From: Promethearchaeota archaeon | GTDB lineage: Archaea > Asgardarchaeota > Lokiarchaeia > Sigyniarchaeales > SOKP01 | NCBI GenBank assembly: GCA_019058445.1 | Contig: JAHPZA010000003.1 | Location: forward strand, 186,710 to 250,709 | Direction: 5' to 3' | DNA: 64,000 nt | Part shown: one piece after another, positions 44,217-58,549 of the stretch | Numbering within the stretch: position 1 is the first letter of the stretch | Layout of the letters: every line of letters starts with the position of its first letter | The notes under the pieces: model-generated | Database searches by the model: none | What the model saw: only the letters and a program-made list of their open reading frames with translations | Told to the model about the DNA's origin: nothing | Position numbers and translations under genes: made by a program

Positions 44217-44645
44217 ATGACTGAAAGTAAAGAGTTCAACCCATTCATCCTAGGAATATGCTGTAATTGGTGTACTTATGCTGGTGCTGATCAAGCAGGC
44301 ACATCTCGTATGCAAAGACCAGCTAATTTAAGGATAATGCGAGTTATGTGTGGAGGTCGAGTGGAACCTCAATTTGTCTTAGATGCTCTTATGAATGGAG
44401 CAGACGGCGTGTTAGTTTCGCATTGTCATCCTGGAGATTGTCATTATGTAGAAGGTAATTTTAAAACGATTAGAAAGCTTCCAATGCTGCATCTTTACTT
44501 AAAACAATTTGGAATTAATCCTAAAAGAGTTAAATACACTTTTGTCTCCGCATCTGAGGGGGCAGAATTAACAGAAATTGTAGAAGAATTTGTTAAAGAG
44601 TTAAAAGAATTAGGACCTAATCCAATTAAAAAGGAGGGAAAATAA
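44217..44645 (+). CDS. mvhD: MvhD [2Fe-2S] subunit (Cys form)
   Basis: CCNWCTYAGAD, RVMCGGRV, CHPGDCHY. Confidence 0.95.
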   Translation: MTESKEFNPFILGICCNWCTYAGADQAGTSRMQRPANLRIMRVMCGGRVEPQFVLDALMNGADGVLVSHCHPGDCHYVEGNFKTIRKLPMLHLYLKQFGINPKRVKYTFVSASEGAELTEIVEEFVKELKELGPNPIKKEGK

Positions 44646-44647
44646 AG

Positions 44648-44908
44648 ATGCCCCAAATTTATCAATTAAAGATTAATCATAACACATGTACGGGCTGTAA
44701 TGCCTGCGTAGTTAGTTGTCCTATTAATTTTAATCAATTACGTAAGCATAGTTATCTAACTAAAGAAAATGCTGTAATTTTAGTTAAAAATGGTTTAGCT
44801 ACGCCTATTTATTCTGAGGAACGAGAAATAAATTGCGATGGGTGTGGAGTATGTGTACAGACATGCCCTCAAGTGGCAATTAAAATTATATGTGTAGAGG
44901 AGGTATAA
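44648..44908 (+). CDS. fwdG: 2x[4Fe-4S] ferredoxin, FwdG-like
   Basis: CTGCNACVVSCPIN and CDGCGVCVQTCP; position in the fwd cluster. Confidence 0.7.
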   Translation: MPQIYQLKINHNTCTGCNACVVSCPINFNQLRKHSYLTKENAVILVKNGLATPIYSEEREINCDGCGVCVQTCPQVAIKIICVEEV

Positions 44909-44912
44909 GAAA

Positions 44913-45623
44913 ATGTCTTTTCCGAAAATTACAAGAAAAATTGATAAGGATCAAGAGGCTGTAAAAGTTCAATTCCTTACAGAAAGTTTAGAACTCATTT
45001 TAGATAAACAAAAATGCGTTGGATGTGGAACTTGTGCGCGAGTGTGTCCAAAAAATGCAATTTCTCGAGGCCCCATCGGAGCTGCCCGAAGATTTCCAAG
45101 TACAGAAGACATTATCCCTCAAGTTTATGATCCTAATAAATGTGTGTTCTGTGGAACCTGTGTTTTTATGTGTCCTTTCAGCGCTCTCACTCTTAAAAAG
45201 GATGGTGAAGTGTTAAACTTAGATGATATCGCTATAATTGCCCAAAAAGTTGTTCCTAAACTTGAGTTTACCGCGAAGAAATTAGATAATGGAAGAATTG
45301 TGAAACAATATGCAACCGCCACAGTAAGCATTGATAATGAAGAATGTGCAGGAGGCTGTTCGACGTGTGCGGAAGTATGCCCAACCGGAGCAATCGCGAT
45401 TGCTAAAAAACCTGAGAAAGGATGGGAATCATCTGTGAAAGTAGAAGTTGTAGATGAAGATAAATGTGTCGCTTGTGGAGCATGTGATAATGCGTGCCCA
45501 ACTGGAGCAGTCAAATTAGAAATCACAGATGTAAAATTTTCAGGAGAGTATAATGAAATCTTTTGGGCCCCATTATTAGAGAGATTAAAAAAATTAAGAT
45601 GGAGTAAATCCAAGGAGGAGTAA
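44913..45623 (+). CDS. fwdF: Polyferredoxin, short FwdF-like (4 clusters)
   Basis: Four CxxCxxCxxxCP motifs; AISRGPIGA. Confidence 0.7.
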   Translation: MSFPKITRKIDKDQEAVKVQFLTESLELILDKQKCVGCGTCARVCPKNAISRGPIGAARRFPSTEDIIPQVYDPNKCVFCGTCVFMCPFSALTLKKDGEVLNLDDIAIIAQKVVPKLEFTAKKLDNGRIVKQYATATVSIDNEECAGGCSTCAEVCPTGAIAIAKKPEKGWESSVKVEVVDEDKCVACGACDNACPTGAVKLEITDVKFSGEYNEIFWAPLLERLKKLRWSKSKEE

Positions 45624-45627
45624 AAAA

Positions 45628-46023
45628 ATGAGCTTAGATGATGTAATATTATTAACTGGACGAACAATTGATCAGGGAGTTGCTCTAGAAGGTGGAAAAA
45701 CCACCATGGAGAATGTACGTGCTGCAGCAATTTGCGCCTTTGATAGTGATGATTTTAAAAAATTAGATACGTTAGTCGGAACTCCCGTCAAGATTATTAC
45801 TGAATATGGAGAAGTGATCGTACATTCAACCATCTCCGAAGAGGGTCCACATCCGGGAATAATATTTATTCCAATGGGACCTTGGGCGAATCAAGTTGTC
45901 AACCCCGATTCTCAATCATGTGGAACTCCCACTTTTAAAGGAATGAAAGCGAAAGTAGAGGTTGTGAAGAGTGGGAAAGTATTAAATGCATTAGATTTAA
46001 TTAACACATTAAAGGAGGCATAA
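45628..46023 (+). CDS. fwdD: Formylmethanofuran dehydrogenase subunit D
   Basis: LTGRTIDQG, FIPMGPWAN, GTPTFKG. Confidence 0.92.
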   Translation: MSLDDVILLTGRTIDQGVALEGGKTTMENVRAAAICAFDSDDFKKLDTLVGTPVKIITEYGEVIVHSTISEEGPHPGIIFIPMGPWANQVVNPDSQSCGTPTFKGMKAKVEVVKSGKVLNALDLINTLKEA

Positions 46024-46026
46024 ATA

Positions 46027-47349
46027 ATGGCAATAAAAAAAATAAAAACTCTATATGACGTAATTTGTCCATTTTGTGGAACATTATGTGATGATGTAGA
46101 AGTTGATATCGCTGAAAATAAGGTTGTTGAGGTTAGAAACGCATGTCAAATAGGAACAAAAAAGTTCTTCTCCTCTAATCCAAGTGAGCATAGATACGAA
46201 ACCCCTATGATTCGAAAAAAGGGTAAATTAGAACCTGCCTCATGGGAAGAAGCAATTGATAAGGCAGCAGATATTTTAACAAAGGCAAAAAGACCATTAT
46301 TATATGGTTTTTCAAGCACAGAGTGTGAAGCTCAAAGTAAAGGAGTAGAATTAGCAGAAATGTTAGGCGGGATTTTGGATAACACGGCTTCAGTGTGCCA
46401 TGGCCCAAGTTTGCTTGCAAAACAGGATGTGGGACAGCCTGGGTCCACATTAGGCGAGTTCAAAAATAGAGCTGATTTAGTTATATTCTGGGGATCTAAC
46501 CCAGTTCATGCTCATCCTAGACATTTAGGTAGATATAGTGAGTTTGTGAGAGGGTACTTTAGAAAAGATGGAAGAAATGACCGCACTATCGTGGTGGTTG
46601 ATCCAAGAAATACCCATACGGCTCAAATTGCTGATTTATATATACAAGTAAAACCAAACGAGGATTATGAATTATTAAATGCAATAAGAGCACTGCTTAG
46701 AGGTGTAGAGCTTGATGTGGAAGAAGTTTCAGGAGTTCCTATGGATCAAATAAAAGAATTAGTTAATACCTTAAAAACCTGTAATTTCGGTGTCATCTTT
46801 TTTGGGATGGGATTAACCCAATCTCTCTCGCATCATCGAAATATTGACGCTGCTATTTGTCTCACTCGGGAATTAAATGATCATACTAAATTTTTAATAA
46901 CCCCAATGCGAGGACATTATAATGTAGCTGGAGCGAACCAAGTATTTTCGTGGAATACTGGTTATGCATATTCTATTGATTTTTCGAAAGGATATCCACG
47001 GTATAATCCGGGAGAATTTTCAGCAGTAGAGGTATTAATAAAAAATCAAATTGATGCGTCACTAATTGTTGCTTCTGATCCCGCAAGTAATTTTCCAGCG
47101 GCCTCAGCAAGAAATTTGTTCAAATATCCTTTGATTGTGATTGATCCTCATGAAACTCCTACGTCGGCAAATGCAGATATTGTTTTACCCGCAGCTATTG
47201 CCGGAATTGAAGCAGAAGGTACCGCATATCGTATGGATAATGTCCCACTTCGGTTAAGAAAAGTAAAAGATGCCCCCGGTGAAAGTATAAGTGATAAGGA
47301 AATATTAGAAAAATTAATTGAAAAAGTAAAAGAAAAACGAGGAGAATAG
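46027..47349 (+). CDS. fwdB: Formylmethanofuran dehydrogenase subunit B (Cys ligand)
   Basis: CPFCGTLCDD, SVCHGPS, HPRHLGRY, MRGHYNV, GTAYRMD. Confidence 0.95.
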   Translation: MAIKKIKTLYDVICPFCGTLCDDVEVDIAENKVVEVRNACQIGTKKFFSSNPSEHRYETPMIRKKGKLEPASWEEAIDKAADILTKAKRPLLYGFSSTECEAQSKGVELAEMLGGILDNTASVCHGPSLLAKQDVGQPGSTLGEFKNRADLVIFWGSNPVHAHPRHLGRYSEFVRGYFRKDGRNDRTIVVVDPRNTHTAQIADLYIQVKPNEDYELLNAIRALLRGVELDVEEVSGVPMDQIKELVNTLKTCNFGVIFFGMGLTQSLSHHRNIDAAICLTRELNDHTKFLITPMRGHYNVAGANQVFSWNTGYAYSIDFSKGYPRYNPGEFSAVEVLIKNQIDASLIVASDPASNFPAASARNLFKYPLIVIDPHETPTSANADIVLPAAIAGIEAEGTAYRMDNVPLRLRKVKDAPGESISDKEILEKLIEKVKEKRGE

Positions 47350-47353
47350 TCAT

Positions 47354-48205
47354 ATGGCTGAAATAAAATTAAAGCTTAAAAAACCATTAGTTTTTCCCTT
47401 AGAAGCAGAATCAATTACACCTGATAATTTTGCGGGAAAATCGAATGATGAGATCAAAAAATTAGTCGCATATTCTGGAAATGAAGAATCTACATTAGGT
47501 CAATTTTTTAATGTATCAGGGAAATCAGGGGAGAAGGATGAATTAAAAATTATTATCGATGGAGATATTTCAAATGTGAAACGGATCGGAGAAAAAATGA
47601 CTGCTGGAGAGATAATAATTAACAGTGATGTTGGCATGCATGTAGGAAACGAAATGTCCGGAGGGAAAATAACTGTTAATGGTAATGCTGACGATTGGGC
47701 TGGAGCGATGATGAAAGGTGGCGAATTAGAAATAAATGGAGATGCAGGAAATTACGTTGGTGCAGCTTATAGAGGATATTGGAAGGGGATGAAAAATGGG
47801 ATAATTAAGGTTAAAGGAAAAGTGGGCGTTGAGTCTATGCTATGGGCAGATGGTTCAGTACCTGCTAAAAGATTTCCGACTCTAATTTGTGGCAGTGCCG
47901 GCTCATTCTTAGGAATTCATAATAATGGAGGCACTATTATCGTTGAAGGTGATATTGACCGTTGCGCTGGAGCGGATCAAATAAAAGGGATGATCGTTGT
48001 TAAAGGAACGGCTCCTAAGATCCTCCCATCATTTAAAAAAATTGGTGAAGTCAAAGAGATTGAATTACTCAACGGAGAAAAGATTACGGGGAAATTTATT
48101 GAATATGCGGGAGATCATTCTGTTAAGAAGAATCATAGCGTAGTGGACAAAAAAACAGGCGAATTAAATAAAGGAGTAAATGGCAGATTATATATTGCCG
48201 CTTAA
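47354..48205 (+). CDS. fwdC: Formylmethanofuran dehydrogenase subunit C
   Basis: GXGXG beta-helix repeats, KRIGEKM, GAAYRGYWKGM. Confidence 0.92.
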   Translation: MAEIKLKLKKPLVFPLEAESITPDNFAGKSNDEIKKLVAYSGNEESTLGQFFNVSGKSGEKDELKIIIDGDISNVKRIGEKMTAGEIIINSDVGMHVGNEMSGGKITVNGNADDWAGAMMKGGELEINGDAGNYVGAAYRGYWKGMKNGIIKVKGKVGVESMLWADGSVPAKRFPTLICGSAGSFLGIHNNGGTIIVEGDIDRCAGADQIKGMIVVKGTAPKILPSFKKIGEVKEIELLNGEKITGKFIEYAGDHSVKKNHSVVDKKTGELNKGVNGRLYIAA

Positions 48206-48302
48206 CATATTTTTTTGATTATTTCTTATTCTTTTTTATTTTCAAGTACATATCATTAATTACTAATAGTATAGAGATTTATATCATAAATAGGGAATCT
48301 TT

Positions 48303-49112
48303 ATGTTTAAACGCCCAGTAAAAATCACAAGGATCAAAAAAGAAGAACGATCTGAAATTAATGATATCGTGCTAATCGAAAGTCCCGTTGATTTAATAAT
48401 TAATTCTGAACCTTTAGTGAATATCATCTGCTTACCGAAAGATTTAAAAGAACTTGCCATAGGTTTTCTATTTTCAATAGGCATTATAAACTCCATTCAA
48501 GATATTAATGAAGTGAGAATTGATGATGTTACAAATCGGGTCTATGTTGATTTAAGTGATTCAATTGATTTCAATATAAAAAATCTTGAGATTAATCCCG
48601 TGGGCCGAGTTGTAGATACATCTTGTGGTATTTCCTCACCATGGAGAGAGACCATTAAAAAAGCATTAGATACTGATAAAGAATTGAGTAAAGCTAGAGA
48701 TGACATAAGAATTCGTTCAGAAGTAATTTTTTCTTCAATTAAACAGATATATAAAGATATGAACCTATATCGGGAAACAGGTGGGTGCCATGGTGCTGCA
48801 ATCTTTAATTTAAATGGAAAGTTATTAAGCCTTAAAGAAGATGTTGGACGTCATAACGCAATAGATAAAGTGCTTGGCGATATGCTTTTGAGCAAAAAAA
48901 GTTTTAAAAATATATTTTTAACCTCCTCGGGAAGATTAACTGGAGATTGTGTGCTGAAAGCTGTAAGAGCTAAAATTCCCATTGTTGCTTCGGTATCTGC
49001 TGCTATTGAGTCCGGTATTCGACTTGCTTTTGCTTACGGGATAACACTTATAGGTTTCGTAAGAGGTTCAAGAATGAATGCGTATACACATACGTATAGA
49101 ATCGTTAATTAA
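48303..49112 (+). CDS. fdhD: Sulfurtransferase FdhD
   Basis: TSCG, TGGCHGAA, EDVGRHNAIDK, SGRLT. Confidence 0.93.
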   Translation: MFKRPVKITRIKKEERSEINDIVLIESPVDLIINSEPLVNIICLPKDLKELAIGFLFSIGIINSIQDINEVRIDDVTNRVYVDLSDSIDFNIKNLEINPVGRVVDTSCGISSPWRETIKKALDTDKELSKARDDIRIRSEVIFSSIKQIYKDMNLYRETGGCHGAAIFNLNGKLLSLKEDVGRHNAIDKVLGDMLLSKKSFKNIFLTSSGRLTGDCVLKAVRAKIPIVASVSAAIESGIRLAFAYGITLIGFVRGSRMNAYTHTYRIVN

Positions 49113-49257
49113 GGCGATTATTATCTAAAATCTAAATTTTTAAATATTCAAAATATCATTAATTTTTTACAAAGATTGGTCTTAATTTCTTTTATTAAAA
49201 ACTATTTTCCTTAAATTTATGAGTAACTAGGGAATATTAGGATTGTGAGTATTTAAT

Positions 49258-49905
49258 TTGAAAGTCGAGAGTAAGTGGATTTTAGTATGTATTTTAGCGG
49301 GAATTCTCATGCTTATAGGCAATTTTAGCGGGTTGCAATTATTTCAATTAATTATTGGATTATATTTTGAATATGGTGTTCCCTATGTGCGAAATGTTGT
49401 AGGTCCTATTCCAACGACTGCATTAACAATTTTTCTTACTGTAATTCTATATATAATGCTTGGAGGAGGTATTTCTGTGATTGTTGGGGCAATCTTTGTC
49501 CTAATCCGTTTGCATAAGTTGGGGAAGTTAATAATTACTCTCGGGACAGGGACAGGATTATTAGGCATTTCTATTTTTATATTAATTGAGACTACTTTCA
49601 TTAATCCTATTGATAATTGGCTGGATTTTGGTTTTTTTATGCTTAGGTTATTAATAGATCTTTATTTTTTGGGTATCATCTTAGCAATAGTAGCTCGTAA
49701 AAAAATGAAACAAATCGGAGAAGAGGAAGACTATACAGGTAAATCTGTTAAAGATTTATTTCCAGAAAAAGAAAAGGAAGAAGAAATAGATCATTTACAA
49801 AAGAAAATTATATGTCCTATATGTAAGTCCGCAAATTCTGATACTGAAAGTCATTGTCGTTATTGTGGAACTGCTTTGAAATATGATTTAGAAAGCAATC
49901 TTTAA
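49258..49905 (+). CDS. 4-TM membrane protein with C-terminal Zn ribbon
   Basis: Hydrophobic helices, GGGISV, CPIC...CRYCG. Confidence 0.75.
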   Translation: MKVESKWILVCILAGILMLIGNFSGLQLFQLIIGLYFEYGVPYVRNVVGPIPTTALTIFLTVILYIMLGGGISVIVGAIFVLIRLHKLGKLIITLGTGTGLLGISIFILIETTFINPIDNWLDFGFFMLRLLIDLYFLGIILAIVARKKMKQIGEEEDYTGKSVKDLFPEKEKEEEIDHLQKKIICPICKSANSDTESHCRYCGTALKYDLESNL

Positions 49906-50068
49906 GTTCTCTTGATCCAATAATTAATTTTTATTATGTTTAGGAAAATTGATAGTTTATAAGCTCAAGATATTTAATTTAATAAAAAAATAATTTATTA
50001 TCAATTTACTTATAAACTATAAATTAATTTTTCAACATTAATTAAATGATAAAAGAAAGGTAATAAAT

Positions 50069-50521
50069 ATGGAAAATAAAGGATCTATAACTGCTTGTAT
50101 CATTGGGGGTGTACTGATGTTTGTGGCTTCAATAGTTGGTTCGGCATTGGCATACCGAATAATAGTAACAGAAGCAACAAAACAATTCCCCGAATATGCA
50201 GCACAACTCGAGCTATTCCTATTAATCTGCATTTTTATTGCAATGGGCGGAGGAATTTCTGTAATATTAGGGAGCATTATCGCATTTAAAGTTGTCCCTA
50301 TTGGTAAATGGATAATAGGCTTAGGGGCAGGAATGGGATTAATAGGCTTTTTGAGTTGGCTTATAACAGGTATATATACAGGCACTATAACCGGAACTGT
50401 AGTGGAGATTTTGATTGGTTTATTATTAGGACCTGCCAGCTATGGTATCATCGGAGTCTTTCTTACAATATGGGCTAGACGTTTTATGAAAAAGAAGAAA
50501 GATAAAGAAATAGAAGAATAA
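50069..50521 (+). CDS. 4-TM membrane protein, paralog of the upstream gene
   Basis: Shares GGGISVIxG and GKxIIxLGxGxGLxG. Confidence 0.75.
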   Translation: MENKGSITACIIGGVLMFVASIVGSALAYRIIVTEATKQFPEYAAQLELFLLICIFIAMGGGISVILGSIIAFKVVPIGKWIIGLGAGMGLIGFLSWLITGIYTGTITGTVVEILIGLLLGPASYGIIGVFLTIWARRFMKKKKDKEIEE

Positions 50522-50632
50522 ATTCAAAACTTAATTACCATAATTTCATTTTTTTTTATTTTCTTGTTTTCAAAGAAAAGTAATAAAAAAAAAAGAAAAA
50601 TAATTAGAAATTAACATATAAGTTCTTGGGAG

Positions 50633-50839
50633 TTATAACCCTCGAACTCGAACTCCAATATAGATTATAAGCCAACTTAAAAAGCAAAGAATAAAACCAG
50701 CTAATAGGATATAATTAGCAGGTACACCAAGAGTAGCTGAAAGTCCATCATAAACTTCCCATATTCCAATAACCATTCCAATTAATAGAACTAAAAATGA
50801 GAACATAATCGTTTTTTTTGTTGGAGGAGAATAAGACAC
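50633..50839 (-). CDS. Small 2-TM protein
   Basis: GTG start, two hydrophobic helices. Confidence 0.6.
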   Translation of the reverse strand: MSYSPPTKKTIMFSFLVLLIGMVIGIWEVYDGLSATLGVPANYILLAGFILCFLSWLIIYIGVRVRGL

Positions 50840-51176
50840 TTTTTAATCATCTCACTTGATTTTTTTATATTATAAAATTCTTAAGATAAAAAACTATTAA
50901 GAAAAAGCAATATAAAAACATTTACACAATTTCTTAAAGGATCAAAAATCTAAGGTTTATCTTATCCAATTTAAGAAATACTATTTTTAGATTTAACTAT
51001 GATAAGAATTAAGCTTAAGATATATCACACTTTTTCTTTTTTGAAATAGTGTTTTTCCTTTCAAAATAGAACTGGTCTAAATACTTATAGATTTAACAAA
51101 TTTTTTAATAAATTCAATATATACCCAAATATCAAAAAATTAAAAATAAAACAAATCAGAATAGTGTAAAAGAATT

Positions 51177-52565
51177 ATGCCGGTACGTGTAGCTTTTATG
51201 CAATTATCTTCATGTTGGGGCTGTCATCAAAGTCTATTAAACGCACATCTCGGATTATTACCCATTTTACCAGAATTAGAAATTGTTTATTGGCCAGCGG
51301 TAGTTGATTTTAAACACGAATCATTAGTAGCGAGACCAGACGGAGACATCGTAGTAGGGTTTATAGAAGGTGTGGCAAGAACAAAGCAAGATACTGAGAA
51401 TGTTAAATTAATGAGAAAAAAATGTAAAGTAATTGTTGCAATAGGCGCATGTGCATGTTATGGTAGTGTTAAAGGGCTAGCCAATCTGTATGATAAAGAA
51501 GAACTTATAAACCGAAAGTTTAAAGAGACCGAGTCTATTACAGATGATGATCCAAAAGAACCTACTGAACATGTTCCTGGAATTGAAGAATTTATTGTAA
51601 ATGTTAAAGATATCATTGATGTAGAGATGTTTATTCCTGGTTGCCCTCCCACAACTGATAATATTATTGCAGCCATTTCTTATTTACTTACTTTAGTTGG
51701 TGAGGGTCCTGATTCTCTTAAGAAAAATAGTACGATATGTGAAACTTGCAATTTATTAAAAAAAGGTTGCTTGTTAGACCAAAATATATTATGCTACGGT
51801 TCAATAACTGCTGCCGGTTGTGAGGAAATGTGTCCAAACAACGGTGAGTTGTGTTATGGATGTTTCAGGCCAACAGCTAAACCACATGAAAAATCTAAAC
51901 AATTAAAAGATATATTAGACAATGTCTTAGCGTTAACTCCAGAACAAGGTGCAAGTTTACAGCATTTTCTAGATCTTTATTTGGGAGCTTCAAATATCAC
52001 GAATTTCTATTTTCGGGGAGATTTAATTCAACGCTTAGGTTATGAACCAGAAAGTTTTGCTACAAAAGAGGTGAATGGAAGATTGATCCTAGATGTAGCA
52101 CCTACCGGGAATGCCATAATGGATGAGATTGTTGGAAGGGCAATGCACCTTTTAAAAGATGATCCATCATTTAAGTTTAGCTCTAAGACCGTTTGTAGCC
52201 ATTGTGAAAGAGATGTTGCTGACAAAGTTCCTACTGAATTAAAGCGAGATTATGAAGGTCTGCCCACAATGGATAAATGCTTTTTAGAGCAAGGATATAT
52301 TTGTTTAGGACCAGTGACTCAAGCAGGATGCGGAACCATATGTCCTAATAAAGCAAATGCTCCCTGCTTAGGATGTTATGGTCCCCCTGTAGGAGTTAAA
52401 GATCAAGGGGCTAAATTTATTAGTGCTCTTGGCTCGCTCTGTGCCAACAGAGAACCAGAAGAAGTTATGAAACTTATTAAAGATCCAGCGGGATTATTTA
52501 ATCGTTTTACTTTAGCCGAAAGCACTTTAGGGCATAAATTTCATGATAAAATGGAGGGTGAGTAA
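51177..52565 (+). CDS. mvhG: Group 3c hydrogenase small subunit (MvhG/VhuG), extended
   Basis: SSCWGCH, GACACYG, PGCPP, and two copies of the distal Cys-rich domain. Confidence 0.92.
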   Translation: MPVRVAFMQLSSCWGCHQSLLNAHLGLLPILPELEIVYWPAVVDFKHESLVARPDGDIVVGFIEGVARTKQDTENVKLMRKKCKVIVAIGACACYGSVKGLANLYDKEELINRKFKETESITDDDPKEPTEHVPGIEEFIVNVKDIIDVEMFIPGCPPTTDNIIAAISYLLTLVGEGPDSLKKNSTICETCNLLKKGCLLDQNILCYGSITAAGCEEMCPNNGELCYGCFRPTAKPHEKSKQLKDILDNVLALTPEQGASLQHFLDLYLGASNITNFYFRGDLIQRLGYEPESFATKEVNGRLILDVAPTGNAIMDEIVGRAMHLLKDDPSFKFSSKTVCSHCERDVADKVPTELKRDYEGLPTMDKCFLEQGYICLGPVTQAGCGTICPNKANAPCLGCYGPPVGVKDQGAKFISALGSLCANREPEEVMKLIKDPAGLFNRFTLAESTLGHKFHDKMEGE

Positions 52566-52568
52566 AAT

Positions 52569-53873
52569 ATGGTGAAAGAGATAGAAGTAGAACCTGTGAC
52601 TCGTTTAGAGGGGCATGGAGGATTAAGGATTGTCTTAGGAGATGATGGGAAAGTAAAAGATGCACAGTTTAATATTACCTCGACAAGATTTTTTGAGAAA
52701 TTCTGTGAAGGTCGTTATTGTGAGCATGTTCCACGAATTACTCCAAGAATTTGTGGTATTTGCCCAATTCCTCATCATTTAACACCTACCAAAGCAGTGG
52801 AAGATGCATGGGGCGTCCAAATCCCTGAACCTGCGCGAAAATTGCGCATTCTATTACAAAATGCGAAACAATATTCATCACATCTATTGCACTTTTATGC
52901 ATTAGCCGCACCTGATTTCTTATTAGGACCTTTTGCAGATCCCGCACTGAGAAATGTAGTCCATGTTATTAATAAAATGCCTGAAGTAGGCGCTATGGCT
53001 TTAAAAATGATGGATTTTGGACAAAAACTTTGTGCGGCAATAGGCGGCAAATCTGTCCATCCAATTTGTGCCATTGTGGGTGGTATGAAAAAACCATTGG
53101 ATGAAGATGTAAGAGATAAATTTCTCAAAGATGTTGATGAGCAAATAGAATTTACCAAAAAGACAGTCGAAATCGGATTAAAAGTGGTAGAGGATTACTG
53201 GGATGTCATAGCTAATGTGGGAGTTGTTCCAACTTATTATGTAGGGCTTACAAAAGATGGTGTCCATGATATTTATGAGGGGGATATACGTATTGTCACT
53301 CCAGAGGGAAAAAAAATCGATTACGCTCCGCAAAATTATCTAGATGCCTTAGGAGAGCACATTCCAGATCATTCTTATGCGACTCATATGTATTACAAGC
53401 CTGCGGGGTATCCTGAGGGGATTTATCGAGCAAATACTTTAGCTATGATTAATGCTGCCGATAAGATGGCCACACCATTGGCCAATGACGCATTAAAAGC
53501 CTTTAGGGAAAAGACCGGACCAATTTCACATCATACCTTTGCGTTTCATTGGGCAAGATTAATTGAAACCGTGGAAGCAATTGAAGTGATTGCTACTTTA
53601 CTTAAAGATCCTGACGTAGTTAATCCGGATTGTAAGACTCTGGATATAGAACCGAAAGAAGCTGCTGGAGTTGGAGTAACAGAAGCTCCAAGAGGATTAT
53701 TACTTTATAATATTTGGTCTGATGCGGCAGGAATCTGTAAGAAACTCAACCTCTTAGTTGCGACAAATCATAATATAGCGGGTATTGAAAAATCGTTGAT
53801 GCATGTGGCGAAGCAGGTATTTGAAGATAAAGCATTGGAGGGTTTAAAACTACCAGACCCCTGGATAAAATAA
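52569..53873 (+). CDS. vhuA: Group 3c hydrogenase large subunit lacking the L2 motif (VhuA-type, split)
   Basis: TRLEGHG, RFFE, L1 RICGICPIPH, EAPRG. Ends at ...DPWIK with no DPCxxC. Confidence 0.93.
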   Translation: MVKEIEVEPVTRLEGHGGLRIVLGDDGKVKDAQFNITSTRFFEKFCEGRYCEHVPRITPRICGICPIPHHLTPTKAVEDAWGVQIPEPARKLRILLQNAKQYSSHLLHFYALAAPDFLLGPFADPALRNVVHVINKMPEVGAMALKMMDFGQKLCAAIGGKSVHPICAIVGGMKKPLDEDVRDKFLKDVDEQIEFTKKTVEIGLKVVEDYWDVIANVGVVPTYYVGLTKDGVHDIYEGDIRIVTPEGKKIDYAPQNYLDALGEHIPDHSYATHMYYKPAGYPEGIYRANTLAMINAADKMATPLANDALKAFREKTGPISHHTFAFHWARLIETVEAIEVIATLLKDPDVVNPDCKTLDIEPKEAAGVGVTEAPRGLLLYNIWSDAAGICKKLNLLVATNHNIAGIEKSLMHVAKQVFEDKALEGLKLPDPWIK

Positions 53874-53929
53874 ATTTATTTATAATTTTTTAAAAATAAA
53901 AACCAAAATCTAAAAAAAAGTGAATAAAA

Positions 53930-54424
53930 ATGGTTGTTGTTGACTATGAATTAAGAAAAAAGGTAATGGATGCTCATATCCATGATGCTTTAAAATATTG
54001 TTATCAGTGCGCTCGTTGCACAGATGTGTGTCCCGTAGCGAAAGTTACAGATCAAAGATATAATCCACGACCAGTTATCATGAACTCGTTTTTAGGGTTA
54101 AACACATTTATGGGAGAAAAGGATAATTTTAGTCTTTGGGGATGTACTATTTGCGATACGTGCGATGAAGTCTGTCCTCAAAAAATTGAGTTAACTGAAA
54201 TATTTACTGTACTAAAGAACATGAGCATCGCAAGAGGAGAAGGTCCAGATTACTATACAACTCAAGCATCGACGATTTATGATACTGGAAAAGCAATACC
54301 GATGCAACCAGCCATCGAAAGGAGAAGAAAGGATTTGGGCCTCCCTGTGATCGAACCTCCTGATGCAGATGAGGTTAAAAAGTTGTTAAATGAAACAAAA
54401 TTAAATAAAATTTTAAAAAAATAG
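53930..54424 (+). CDS. hdrC: Heterodisulfide reductase subunit C (second copy)
   Basis: CYQCARCTDVCP and CTICDTCDEVCP. Confidence 0.88.
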   Translation: MVVVDYELRKKVMDAHIHDALKYCYQCARCTDVCPVAKVTDQRYNPRPVIMNSFLGLNTFMGEKDNFSLWGCTICDTCDEVCPQKIELTEIFTVLKNMSIARGEGPDYYTTQASTIYDTGKAIPMQPAIERRRKDLGLPVIEPPDADEVKKLLNETKLNKILKK

Positions 54425-54440
54425 AAAGAGAGGAATAAAT

Positions 54441-55328
54441 ATGGCAAAAACAGAAGAATATAAAATGTTCCAAGGATGTACTATTGGAAATCGGATCCCC
54501 TTTCTTGAAGCGTCCGCACGAAAAGTATTTGATAAACTGGGAATTAAAACCTCTGAAGCCCCTTTTGCATGTTGTCCAGATCCCGTAGGATTTAATTCCA
54601 CAGATCATTTAAGTTGGCTTGCAATGGGAGCGAGAAATCTTACAATTGCCGAAGATGAAGGAAAAGATATCATTTCTCTTTGTAACGGATGTTTTCAAAC
54701 GTTAAAACTTGTGAATAAAGAATTAATCCATGATGAACACGAGAAAGAAAAAATTAACGCTATCTTGAAAACAATTGGAAGAGAATTCAAAGGGACTATT
54801 AATGTAAAACATTTCGTAGAAGTGTTATATGACATTGGTGCTGATAAAATAAAAGAGAATGTTGTAAAAGAATTAGCAGGATTAAAAGTTGCTTGTCATA
54901 CAGGTTGTCATTACAATCGACCTTCTGAAATAGTTCAAACAGATGATCCCATGAAACCAATTAAATTAAGAGGAGTTGTTAAAGCCACAGGCGCAGTTCC
55001 AGTAGATTATGAGGAAGAAATGCTCTGTTGTGGGGCTGGAGTCGGTAATACTGAAGAAGAGCCAGCAATGCAAATTTTAAATAATAAAATAACCAGCGCG
55101 ATGAACGCTGGAGCAGAAGCGTTTATTGTCAATTGTCCTGCGTGTTTTCAGCAATTTGATACTAATCAGAAAAAAGCAGAAAAAATAGCGGGAAAAAATT
55201 TCGGAATTCCAGTGTTGTATGTGACTGAATTACTTGCATTGGCCTTTGGTGAGAAACCAGATGATTTAGGTTTGAAATTTCATCGTGTTAGACTGAGTGC
55301 TCTCTTAGAAAAACATGGACTTAGCTAG
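54441..55328 (+). CDS. hdrB: Heterodisulfide reductase subunit B (second copy)
   Basis: CCPDP, CNGC, GCHY, CCGAG, CPAC. Confidence 0.9.
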   Translation: MAKTEEYKMFQGCTIGNRIPFLEASARKVFDKLGIKTSEAPFACCPDPVGFNSTDHLSWLAMGARNLTIAEDEGKDIISLCNGCFQTLKLVNKELIHDEHEKEKINAILKTIGREFKGTINVKHFVEVLYDIGADKIKENVVKELAGLKVACHTGCHYNRPSEIVQTDDPMKPIKLRGVVKATGAVPVDYEEEMLCCGAGVGNTEEEPAMQILNNKITSAMNAGAEAFIVNCPACFQQFDTNQKKAEKIAGKNFGIPVLYVTELLALAFGEKPDDLGLKFHRVRLSALLEKHGLS

Positions 55329-55414
55329 AATAAAAGAAACTAACTTTATTATAATAACAAATATCTTTTAATTTAAAGAAAAAGATTAGCATTTAAAAAA
55401 GGTGGATATGAATT

Positions 55415-55567
55415 ATGAGTGAAGATGTGCCAGAAGGAGTTGTAAATCTCTTAGAAATGGTTGTCCGTTGTTTTGACTGCTGACTATCATGCGCCGCTCA
55501 TATAACTGTCGTTAATGAAGACGGTGAAGAGATATACAAACGTCAATTAAACGTTGGTTTAGGATGA
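55415..55567 (+). CDS. vhuU: Selenoprotein VhuU: MSEDVPEGVVNLLEMVVRCFDCULSCAAHITVVNEDGEEIYKRQLNVGLG (U = TGA 55481-55483)
   Basis: Manual translation. GGTGG SD upstream. The in-frame TGA sits at the Ni-ligand position of the L2 motif missing from VhuA, and a SECIS-like hairpin follows. Confidence 0.93.
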
Positions 55568-55623
55568 TTGTCCAATAAAAAACGGAGATTGGACATGACT
55601 GCCCTTGTGCGGGTATGACCAAC
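55553..55623 (+). promoter_or_regulatory. Eukaryote-type SECIS element
   Basis: ATGAT / TGTCCAAT / AAAAAACGGAG / ATTGGACA / TGAC gives a UGAN/NGAN core, perfect 8-bp helix and A-rich apical loop. GTTGGTT (55553) can pair with GACCAAC (55617). Confidence 0.85.
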
Positions 55624-55734
55624 AAAATTCTTATTTTTATATTTTTTAGCTTAGAATCATGGCTGAATATAGACCTATAATTGAGTATGGAAGTACTAAG
55701 AGTGTTCATCTGTAAAAAATAAGGAACTCTTTTT

Positions 55735-57048
55735 TTATTTTAATTTGCCAAAAAGGTTAAATCCCTCAACTTTTTTTATTTTTACTTCAACAAATTTGCC
55801 AAAGTTATCATCATATTTCTCAATAAAAATATTTTTATAAGCAAAATTTCTTCCAAAAGCTTGATGTTCTGCGGAACCCTTATGAAGTATTAATACTTCA
55901 CCTTGCCAGCCTTCCCATTTTTTATTCATATTGGAAAGGCTATTGCGGAAGATATTAGATAATCTAATAGATCTTTCCTTGATAGTTCTACTATCAAGTT
56001 GTTTCATATCCTTTGCTTTGGTTCCAGGTCGAGCAGTAAATTTAGAAATATTTAAAATCTCTGGTTTTAACCATTTTATAAAGTTAATTGTGCGATAAAA
56101 ATCGTATTCAGTTTCGCTGGGAAATCCACAGATAATATCAGTAGAAATCGTAAGATCTGGAAAATTTGCTCTTAAAACTTCAATTTTCTCTGCTATTTTC
56201 GAAATTAAGTAAGGTCTCTGCATTAATTTAAGGATTTTATTGCTTCCAGATTGAATAGGAATATGAAGAAATTGATATACTTTTTCTAAATTAAAAATCG
56301 AAATTAATTGATCAAAATTAGTGATTAAAAAACTTGGATTTATCATTCCTATTCTTAAAAAGAATTTGTATGGTAAATTGACAATAGATTTCACTAAATT
56401 GAATAGATTTATGTTATTATTTTGATAAGTGCTACAATCTTGAGAGGTTAAATATATCTGTTTAATACCTTGTTTTAGTTGGTATTTAACGTTCTCAATA
56501 ATTTTATGAGGATTATAGCAATTTAAACTACCACGAGCATTTTTTACACAACAATATGTACATGATCCTTCGCAGCCCTCTGATATAGGAATAATTCCAG
56601 TGATCTTTCCTTCAGTATGATCAATTAAATATTCTGCTTTGTCAATTGAATTATTTGTTTTAAGAATTAAATTCCTTTTTCCTTGCTTTATTTTTTCAAA
56701 TATTTCTGGTAATTCATGAATATTATCTAAATCAATAATAGCGGAAAATGTTGGAATTAGTTTCTTGACGACCTCTGTGTAATTTGGAGTGATATGTGGT
56801 AAACAACCAGCAATAATTATATGTTTATTAACATCATTAGAATATATCTTAAATAACTGCTTCAATCGTGATTTAATCTTATTCTCAGTTTGTTCTTTAA
56901 CGGCGCATGTATTAATAATAATGAATTCTGCTTTGTCTATTGATGTTTGATAATACTTATTTTTTTTTAAAATGCTAGAAATTATATAAGAATCAGCTTT
57001 ATTTGAAGTACATCCATATGTTTCAATATAAAAAGAATTGGCTTCCAA
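55735..57048 (-). CDS. mtaB: tRNA t6A37 methylthiotransferase (archaeal MtaB/CDKAL1 type)
   Basis: ETYGCTSN, NTCAVK, CEGSCTYC, HIPIQSGS, DIICGFPSET, TRAM-like C-terminus. Confidence 0.88.
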   Translation of the reverse strand: MEANSFYIETYGCTSNKADSYIISSILKKNKYYQTSIDKAEFIIINTCAVKEQTENKIKSRLKQLFKIYSNDVNKHIIIAGCLPHITPNYTEVVKKLIPTFSAIIDLDNIHELPEIFEKIKQGKRNLILKTNNSIDKAEYLIDHTEGKITGIIPISEGCEGSCTYCCVKNARGSLNCYNPHKIIENVKYQLKQGIKQIYLTSQDCSTYQNNNINLFNLVKSIVNLPYKFFLRIGMINPSFLITNFDQLISIFNLEKVYQFLHIPIQSGSNKILKLMQRPYLISKIAEKIEVLRANFPDLTISTDIICGFPSETEYDFYRTINFIKWLKPEILNISKFTARPGTKAKDMKQLDSRTIKERSIRLSNIFRNSLSNMNKKWEGWQGEVLILHKGSAEHQAFGRNFAYKNIFIEKYDDNFGKFVEVKIKKVEGFNLFGKLK

Positions 57049-57171
57049 AATCAGTTCATTTCAATAAGATTTAATAATCTATAAAAGAACTAATAATATA
57101 ACGATAAAAAATTTTTTTAAAAAAGCAGTCTAATATTAACAGAAATTTACTCATTAAAGTGGATGATCTAA

Positions 57172-57612
57172 ATGGTTAAAATTAAATATGCTTATTGCAA
57201 ATATTGCGATAAAGAAGTCCATAAACCTTCTCAAAAACCACTTGGTTCGATGCAAAAAAATTATTGGATCGTAATTTGTATTGCGACTTTAGGAATCGGC
57301 ATTATTGGGTACTATTTATACAAGAATTCTTTGAAAAAGAAAATATATTGCCCTACGTGTTATTCAAAATTAGAATTTTCATCTGAGCCTTTTGAAAAGC
57401 CTAAATTAGCAGAAACATTAACTGCAAAACAAAAGGCTATAGCGAAAGTTGAAAAGAAAAAAACCGGAAAGGTACCAGCAAAAAAGAAAGTTGAAAAGAA
57501 AGAGGTGGAGGTAGAACCAGAAGAAAAAAAACTAATATGTGAGTTATGTGGTGAAACTTTAAAAGAGAAAACTAAAACATGTCCTTACTGCGGTGCGCCT
57601 CTTAAATTTTGA
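57172..57612 (+). CDS. LITAF-like Zn/membrane domain plus C-terminal Zn ribbon protein
   Basis: CKYC - hydrophobic segment - CPTC; Lys/Glu linker; CELC...CPYC. Confidence 0.6.
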   Translation: MVKIKYAYCKYCDKEVHKPSQKPLGSMQKNYWIVICIATLGIGIIGYYLYKNSLKKKIYCPTCYSKLEFSSEPFEKPKLAETLTAKQKAIAKVEKKKTGKVPAKKKVEKKEVEVEPEEKKLICELCGETLKEKTKTCPYCGAPLKF

Positions 57613-57790
57613 AAAATACGGGAATATTATATCTTTATATATTTTTTTAAGTGAAAATAAAATTTATCAAAAATATAATAAAAAATAAATTAAAAGAAAA
57701 GAGTTTTAAACAATATATTATAAAAAGAAATTTAAAGAATATATTAAAAATAATATTAAAAAAAAAATAAAACAAAATAGAGGATGAATT

Positions 57791-58549
57791 ATGCCAAGAA
57801 AAGCTCCCTCAAGAGAGCCGGACCCGCTTGATGATTATAGCACCTGGGATGTTAGAATTGCAAGAGCTTATTACTATTCTTTCATAGCTTCAGCATTAAT
57901 TATGGTTATTGGGATCTGGGGTTTGATTCTTTCTGGTATTGATCCGGCAATATGGAAACAATATTTAGCGCTAGATGCTGGCTTCCAAGTCGCCATAGTT
58001 GCCGCATTTATTACTGGACATCTGATCTTACTTGTTCTTTTTTATGCCATGTTTAAAGGTGGTATTGTAAGAATGTGTAGAACCATATACAAAAATCGAA
58101 CTGTCGCTAAAAAATGGGAAGATTATACGTATCTTAGATGGTTGATGGGCGTTACCATATTGGGTATTTATGTAGTTGTGATTTCATTAATAATTGGATT
58201 CTTACCAGGGGGAACTATCAAGTTTATCTCTGATCTTACTCTTTGGGCACTTGAAAATTTTAATGTCGGCCATTGGATCTTATGGATAGGTTTTTGTGTT
58301 TTCCTAATAGTACTTTTCTTCTTTGTCATGTTCTGGGTATGGAACCATGGAGTGTACATAGTCTTAAGAAATATCAAAAAAATCGAGGAAGAAGAAGTCA
58401 TAGATATGGAAATCAAGAGAGATACTCTAAAGAAAATGTCCGAGGAAGAACGCCGAGCAGAATATAAGAAAGAAACTGGAAAAGATGCAGCATATCGAGG
58501 CAAAGATACCAGAGGATATAAAAATTGGAAGAAAAAATACGGCGTATAA
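57791..58549 (+). CDS. 4-TM membrane protein with charged C-terminal tail
   Basis: Four hydrophobic helices; YKKETGKDAAYRGKDTRGYKNW tail. Confidence 0.75.
   Translation: MPRKAPSREPDPLDDYSTWDVRIARAYYYSFIASALIMVIGIWGLILSGIDPAIWKQYLALDAGFQVAIVAAFITGHLILLVLFYAMFKGGIVRMCRTIYKNRTVAKKWEDYTYLRWLMGVTILGIYVVVISLIIGFLPGGTIKFISDLTLWALENFNVGHWILWIGFCVFLIVLFFFVMFWVWNHGVYIVLRNIKKIEEEEVIDMEIKRDTLKKMSEEERRAEYKKETGKDAAYRGKDTRGYKNWKKKYGV

Follow-up and report, generated by a model that had tools for sequence, protein, structure and literature searches.

A vhuU gene with a candidate selenocysteine codon and a eukaryote-like SECIS element beside a split hydrogenase in Promethearchaeota

Described VhuU peptides and the locus in comparison

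The Lokiarchaeota are now called Promethearchaeota (Promethearchaeia). Models of Asgard syntrophy have hydrogen metabolism at their centre. A selenocysteine (Sec)-containing VhuU, a complete Sec machinery, an intron-bearing tRNA-Sec with the archaeal 9/4 fold and a SECIS element, the lokiSECIS, were described from Lokiarchaeota in 2016, and the main text of that report defines the element as an AUGA, a 9-bp stem, an 11-nt loop starting with A and ending with (A)G, and a GA or AA, located at the end of the ORF, with the AUGA of VhuU.1 supplying the UGA stop (Mariotti et al., PMC4989117). The same text states that no SBP2 is known in archaea (PMC4989117). A survey from 2024 covers, in its main text, 227 Asgard archaea that use Sec and gives the VhuU family (FrhA/MvhA/VhuU) for 68.3% of them (Huang et al., PMC11227280). 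In the main text of a further paper, a lokiarchaeal SECIS is reported to be inactive in Methanococcus maripaludis (PMC11881835), which shows that the signal is lineage-specific and does not make it an inactive one.

We analysed a 64,000-nt stretch of a Promethearchaeota contig (the window) and found that positions 55415–55567 are very probably a vhuU gene, in which the first UGA is decoded as Sec by means of a SECIS element and whose product completes a split group 3c [NiFeSe] hydrogenase. The initial annotation had described an unannotated ORF here, with an in-frame TGA and a 21-aa tail, and our translation (55415–55570, TGA as U) reproduces the claimed peptide exactly: M-S-E-D-V-P-E-G-V-V-N-L-L-E-M-V-V-R-C-F-D-C-U-L-S-C-A-A-H followed by the 21-residue tail. 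It had also stated that VhuU with Sec was already on record in Lokiarchaeota, and the literature agrees (PMC4989117, PMC11227280). Both the gene type and its eukaryote-like SECIS date back to 2016; with lokiarchaeial VhuU and the lokiSECIS published then, and VhuU catalogued in 2024, this case adds no new kind.

The locus resembles Lokiarchaeota VhuU.1 in that the peptide is about 50 aa long and has a single Sec, VhuA is encoded separately and the AUGA doubles as the UGA stop. It also shares with the 2016 description (PMC4989117) the SECIS of AUGA, 9-bp stem, 11-nt loop beginning with A and ending with AG, then GA/AA, as well as an EFsec gene a few kb from the tRNA-Sec gene on the opposite strand and a 31-nt intron in the T-loop of tRNA-Sec. 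Unlike in that description, vhuU here follows hdrC-hdrB rather than coming directly after vhuA, and a further intron, of 34 nt, is proposed for the D-arm of tRNA-Sec, whereas the main text of the 2016 paper gives the T-loop intron only. The best structural relative is the split [NiFeSe] enzyme of Methanococcales (9sfi), made up of a 418-aa alpha subunit, a 288-aa small subunit and a 27-aa VhuU, which agrees with our locus in the split point, the Sec position (X) and the S-C-A-A-H end; Mvh/Vhu proteins are the best PDB matches for both the large and the small subunit. In contrast to Methanococcales VhuU, Cys replaces the Pro of D-P-U and the Ala of R-A-Y-D, the SECIS is eukaryote-like rather than of the GAA_A type, about 140 aa are inserted in the small subunit, and no selenoprotein form of VhuD/MvhD is encoded in this genome. 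VhuA and VhuU together are collinear with residues 3–451 of the fused MvhA of Methanothermococcus/Methanothermobacter (5odc_F, 9sw2_F), which differs in being a single polypeptide with Cys in place of Sec and no recoding.

Table 1. Features of the hydrogenase locus and of the Sec machinery. Positions are those of the window unless a contig is named.
Feature	Position	Strand	Basis or remark
vhuG/mvhG-like small subunit, 462 aa	51177–52565	+	Pfam Oxidored_q6, E 3e-21; best PDB match MvhG 5odc_E
vhuA, group 3c [NiFe(Se)] hydrogenase large subunit, 434 aa	52569–53873	+	RICGIC present; C-terminal metal-binding motif lacking
hdrC-like 2x[4Fe-4S] ferredoxin subunit	53930–54424	+	Pfam Fer4_8 and related families
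hdrB-like subunit, two CCG domains	54441–55328	+	Pfam CCG, E 5e-27 in 2 stretches, and HdrB-like_C
Shine-Dalgarno-like AGGTGGA	55400–55406	+	8 nt before the vhuU ATG; seen in the sequence, putative function
vhuU ORF	55415–55567	+	50 codons including one Sec codon; stop TGA 55565–55567
Sec codon UGA, residue 23 (predicted)	55481–55483	+	first-Cys position of the C-terminal Ni-binding motif
VhuU C-terminal extension, 21 residues past His29	55502–55564	+	alignment to FrhA
SECIS, lokiSECIS type, proposed three-helix junction	55553–55623	+	published lokiSECIS features, covariation and MFE folding
SECIS helix I	55553–55558 with 55618–55623
SECIS AUGA core, includes the stop codon	55564–55567
SECIS helix II	55568–55576 with 55588–55596		8 pairs plus U-U beside the core
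SECIS apical loop, 11 nt, A-rich	55577–55587		AAAAAACGGAG
SECIS GA	55597–55598
SECIS helix III	55601–55604 with 55611–55614		GCCC/GGGU
T-rich run, probable archaeal transcription terminator	55628–55650	+	directly 3' of the SECIS; putative function
SepSecS	C6:1056455–1057600		profile match, E 1e-113
EFsec	C6:1064087–1065490		best PDB match archaeal SelB 4ac9, E 6e-87, then eukaryotic eEFSec
tRNA-Sec, anticodon UCA	C6:1059760–1059917	-	158 nt, two proposed introns

The split hydrogenase and its operons

The initial annotation had noted a large subunit with RICGIC and without a C-terminal DPCxxC..H, and both the sequence and its alignment to MvhA agree: the DPCxxCxxH motif is absent from the 434-aa VhuA, whose residues 4–418 match the split alpha subunit 9sfi_g over its full length of 418 aa (PDB, E 7e-122) and which also aligns with residues 3–416 of the 473-aa fused MvhA 5odc_F. 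In a search of the whole PDB, VhuU residues 3–32 align with residues 422–451 of the same MvhA chain (E 3.7e-5), and VhuU residues 5–30 align with residues 2–27 of the 27-residue VhuU chain 9sfi_M, deposited separately as ‘F420 non-reducing hydrogenase subunit’, in which a non-standard residue X aligns with the TGA; MvhA has Cys there. The VhuU motif reads D-C-U-L-S-C-A-A-H, with U at the first Cys of the hydrogenase motif D-P-C-x-x-C-x-x-H. By these alignments VhuA is split, not truncated, and VhuA and VhuU tile full-length MvhA. The peptide occurs in 38 of the 41 related genomes of our conservation sample, which was drawn from four families of the order, three of which have it; given this distribution and the PDB E-value, its resemblance to a hydrogenase C-terminus is, as judged from sequence, far beyond chance.

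The 21 residues that follow His29 (codon 55499–55501) align with residues 373–401 of FrhA (3zfs_A), its C-terminal extension, which fits their removal by a maturation protease; they are presumably cut off by such an endopeptidase, and a HycI-family protease gene is present in the same genome (C9:769807–770070). Around residues 19–23 (55469–55483) the peptide reads R-C-F-D-C-U, compared with R-A-Y-D-P-C/X in solved homologs. Both cysteines are lineage-specific; Cys19 is present in 30/30 relatives and Cys22 in 29/30, the remaining relative reading D-P-U. As a speculation, the Cys that adjoins Sec could form a selenenyl-sulfide.

As the initial annotation had it, vhuU lies past hdrC-hdrB, with HdrC-like and HdrB-like genes set between vhuA and vhuU and all five genes on the plus strand; vhuU is followed by a MiaB-like radical-SAM gene in convergent orientation. 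The genome has a second hydrogenase operon 30 kb upstream of the first (C3:154.8–159.2 kb, minus strand), which encodes hypE, hypD, vhuG, vhuA, vhuU, hdrC and hdrB, has its own SECIS, and specifies a VhuA 83% identical to that of the window. The order with vhuU behind hdrC-hdrB and facing the MiaB-like gene was found at nine loci from separate genomes and the order vhuA-vhuU-hdrC-hdrB at 14 loci, and other families of the same order have hdrB-vhuA-vhuU. It had been expected that standard gene callers would miss vhuU, and indeed translation table 11 closes the ORF at 55483, so that nothing would be called; both hydrogenase operons would look truncated in annotation unless the 50-codon selenopeptide genes were added.

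The small subunit, at 462 aa, is longer than solved MvhG chains (~290–310 aa). MvhG 5odc_E matches it in two stretches (query 3–194 and 336–448), and the insert between them (~195–335, ~140 aa) repeats a Cys-rich module, C-x-x-x-x-C-x-G...C-x-G-C, which suggests additional Fe-S clusters. The 438-aa copy in the paralogous operon has the same insert feature.

The initial annotation had put forward a [NiFeSe] Vhu-Hdr complex; of the MvhADG-HdrABC module, the operon encodes A, G, HdrC and HdrB. A split [NiFeSe] hydrogenase encoded with HdrC/HdrB-like genes is well supported; neither hdrA nor mvhD was found in either hydrogenase operon of the genome, and a complete Vhu-Hdr therefore cannot be claimed from the operon. 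The genome has five MvhD-domain genes, all of them Cys forms without an in-frame stop, and this, together with the position of hdrA and mvhD outside the operon, means that the partner set differs from that of methanococcal Vhu. It is conceivable, and in our judgement a substantial minority possibility, that vhuU is genuine and the enzyme is nevertheless no Hdr-coupled Vhu in the methanogen sense, its HdrCB-like subunits serving another acceptor or bifurcating module in a non-methanogen. The operons' lack of hdrA and mvhD is in keeping with such a role, as are the small-subunit Fe-S module, absent from the solved MvhG chains matched, and an MvhD-like gene placed beside formylmethanofuran-dehydrogenase-like genes 6.5 kb upstream, but the two paralogous operons share the arrangement with hdrC and hdrB, which is also kept across families, and HdrA-MvhD-like long ORFs are present elsewhere in the genome.

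The MvhD-like gene just mentioned (44217–44645), a Cys form with four further copies elsewhere, lies some 6.5 kb 5' of the hydrogenase operon. On its 3' side are polyferredoxin-like genes and then formylmethanofuran dehydrogenase D/B/C-like genes (45628–48205; read from translations), and the stretch (44217–49112) ends with an FdhD-like gene (48303–49112).

Decoding of the in-frame TGA

Among full homologs, the column of the Sec codon reads TGA in 28/29 and TGT in 1/29, and X occupies it in 9sfi_M; this is the comparison with Cys/Sec that the initial annotation had suggested. The 27 codons past the TGA are likewise conserved as protein in the same frame: mean pairwise differences per site are 0.22, 0.12 and 0.52 at codon positions 1, 2 and 3, and the share of synonymous codon differences is 57% in frame, compared with 6% and 4% in the other two frames. 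Of the 92 distinct homolog segments listed, all except L037, L101 and L103 keep 84 nt between the TGA and the stop that follows. Elsewhere in its own genome, TGA closes 250 of the 1984 ORFs of at least 300 codons (12.6%); it is an ordinary stop genome-wide and is not reassigned. These patterns support recoding of the TGA at 55481–55483 as established at the evolutionary level, and Sec insertion itself we infer.

Among the homologs that depart from the common form, one, in another family of the same order (L046, G027:C117), has a split vhuA and a small peptide gene with TGT (Cys), a TAA stop and no recognisable SECIS; Cys is therefore functionally tolerated at the Sec position. In another (L037, G019:C49), vhuU is broken by a TAA 39 nt past the Sec codon and the remaining peptide and SECIS are out of frame, the result of either a frameshifted pseudogene or an assembly error.

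A complete Sec machinery is predicted from the genome: SepSecS, a PSTK-like protein, EFsec, a Sec-containing SelD and tRNA-Sec, the set for which the initial annotation had suggested a search, were all found, with PSTK below threshold and tRNA-Sec recognised only once its introns were removed. The SelD gene carries one in-frame TGA, in its G-U-S-C-K site, and the PSTK-like gene, at 149 bits (E 3e-43), falls short of the curated 290-bit cut-off. SepSecS, tRNA-Sec and EFsec are clustered within 9 kb. Once both proposed introns are excised, one of 34 nt from the D-arm and one of 31 nt from the T-loop, ARAGORN reports a 93-nt tRNA-SeC(UCA) in the archaeal 9/4 fold: the acceptor stem has 9 bp, the D-stem 7 bp and a loop of 4 nt, the anticodon stem 6 bp and the T-stem 4 bp, the variable arm is long and the discriminator is G. 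A whole-genome search with the Rfam tRNA-Sec model gave no match at E<=0.001; at E<=10 the true, unspliced gene scored 28 bits against a threshold of 47 bits, probably because the two proposed introns break the D- and T-arms, and ARAGORN did not call this gene on the unspliced genome. An ARAGORN ‘tRNA-SeC’ at C1:27020–27126 has a 7-bp acceptor stem and a forced intron and was rejected as a miscalled tRNA with a long variable arm. Pfam PF21208 (eukaryotic SelB domain III) had no match anywhere, controls included, and is thus uninformative.

If the TGA at 55481 were a true stop, the ORF would be a 22-codon relic and the large subunit would be truncated and either inactive or reliant on other ligands. 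Translation table 11, which ends the ORF at 55483, accords with this view, but with downstream codons that evolve as coding sequence in the same frame, a TGA-to-stop distance held at 84 nt in nearly all homolog segments listed, a SECIS and the full Sec machinery, it is barely credible. Readthrough by a near-cognate tRNA (Cys or Trp), or some selenium-free local recoding, would agree with the TGT in one relative; against it, that homolog lacks a SECIS while all TGA homologs have one, a dedicated tRNA(UCA), SepSecS, EFsec and a Sec-containing SelD are kept in the genome, and TGA is a normal stop elsewhere, which makes such decoding very improbable. Decoding of the TGA as Sec, as the initial annotation had proposed, is favoured by the Sec machinery, the SECIS and the codon conservation alike; of the outcomes it had named as refuting, neither a genome lacking Sec machinery nor a loss of conservation past the TGA in relatives was observed.

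In the mechanism we propose, the vhuU mRNA has two UGAs, the first of which would be decoded as Sec by Sec-tRNA(Sec)/EFsec under the direction of a SECIS starting 70 nt downstream. The 50-residue product would be the C-terminal strand of the large subunit (motif D-C-U-x-x-C-x-x-H), and its Sec23 and Cys26 would join the two RICGIC Cys of VhuA to complete the Ni-Fe site, after which, metal having been inserted, the endopeptidase would probably cut off the residues past His29. With the MvhG-like small subunit, this would give a cytoplasmic group 3c [NiFeSe] hydrogenase encoded beside HdrC- and HdrB-like subunits. Sec insertion, peptide cleavage, the composition of the complex and the physiological electron acceptor are what we infer from these sequences.

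The SECIS element and other candidate selenoproteins

Read 5' to 3', the element is AUGA, UUGUCCAAU, AAAAAACGGAG, AUUGGACAU and GA. All published lokiSECIS features are found in it, including the use of the AUGA as stop, as in VhuU.1. On 20 homologs, double-sided changes occurred at 9/9 pairs of helix II, values that 0/500 shuffles reached, and when 83 homologs were aligned by MAFFT without regard to structure, 94.7% of cells were paired, compared with 22–46% in slid controls. The element is present in all TGA homologs, and T-runs are similarly placed after it in relatives. A scan of the whole genome with the strict lokiSECIS pattern gave eight matches, six of which fit well (9-bp stem, 11–12-nt loop); all six lie directly 3' of ORFs with an in-frame TGA, which independently supports the motif as a mark of selenoprotein genes. 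An Rfam scan of 49000–58000 found no SECIS family, Rfam having none that matches, and only two chance-level matches; 55565–55660 folded alone showed no significant structure (z -0.29), a stretch that begins inside the element and lacks helix I and the AUGA; and a covariance model built from vhuU SECIS elements (R1) was too family-specific, matching only the two vhuU copies in the genome, and the simple pattern scan served better.

Unconstrained MFE folding returned a three-helix junction, the same as that in Table 1. In helix I, GUUGGU, which consists of the Val and Gly codons 7–12 nt before the vhuU stop, pairs with ACCAAC, a hexamer about 53 nt past the stop. The full 6 bp form at this register in 79/83 homologs, compared with 1–7/83 for control hexamers and 24/83 for an overlapping hexamer. 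Changes at synonymous third positions are accompanied by compensating ones in the 3' strand (U-A to C-G; U-A to A-U or C-G), and two distant homologs have hexamers that are wholly different yet fully complementary. Helix I strands pair with their own partner in 95% of cases versus 30% with partners of other classes, or 43% versus 3% when only Watson-Crick pairs are counted. Helix III is nearly invariant in vhuU homologs; another selenoprotein family has an equivalent hairpin immediately 3' of GAC, and there the sequence varies by compensatory changes.

We tentatively propose that the vhuU SECIS, and probably the lokiSECIS generally, is a three-helix junction with a helix I that is destroyed by the ribosome before the second UGA, a proposal for and against which we see the balance as almost even. 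In this junction the kink-turn hairpin and a short G-C hairpin would be enclosed by the basal helix. Since part of the coding sequence and the stop codon lie within the basal helix and the AUGA, the ribosome would destroy the signal ahead of the second UGA, and this would explain why the first UGA is read as Sec and the second as stop: the SECIS would be intact while the ribosome sits at the first, and a ribosome at the second (within AUGA) would have melted helix I and the core. The element is like eukaryotic SECIS in its AUGA...GA core, an apical loop starting with adenines and a basal helix below the core, and differs in that helix II has 9 bp only, a small extra hairpin stands between GA and the basal 3' strand, and the vhuU element extends over coding sequence and the stop codon. 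If the proposal is true, the Asgard element has a ‘helix I’, which was thought to set it apart from eukaryotic SECIS. The main texts of SECIS papers from 2016, 2024, 2025 and 2026 describe the core, upper stem and apical loop, and a basal helix or third hairpin was not found in them; these two helices may be new beyond the main-text descriptions, and supplementary figures may already show them. The extended SECIS (basal helix and third hairpin, with covariation from more than 80 genomes) could bear on the transition from the archaeal to the eukaryotic signal and on how the ribosome distinguishes two UGAs 84 nt apart.

Two further groups of ORFs in the genome have in-frame TGA codons and lokiSECIS elements. 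A 156-aa ORF on the plus strand (C6:633575–634045; L148:4076–4546) matches no Pfam family and has two adjacent in-frame TGA in the motif D-V-G-C-U-U-E-A-V, with a lokiSECIS 9 nt past its stop; relatives occur in 33/41 genomes, with two or three in-frame TGA in nearly all full-length matches. It is a candidate selenoprotein family outside the seven listed for Asgard archaea in the main text of the 2024 survey, and may be new. Two paralogous ORFs of about 125 aa on the minus strand (C10:79302–79682 and C10:78324–78689; L149:1403–1783 and 425–790) also match no Pfam family. Both carry a single in-frame TGA, within the motif S-U-x-x-x-F-C, and a lokiSECIS of their own; the homolog situated between the two has no in-frame TGA. 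Their TGA is conserved in 14/41 related genomes, all of the same family, and they form a second candidate selenoprotein family that may be new.
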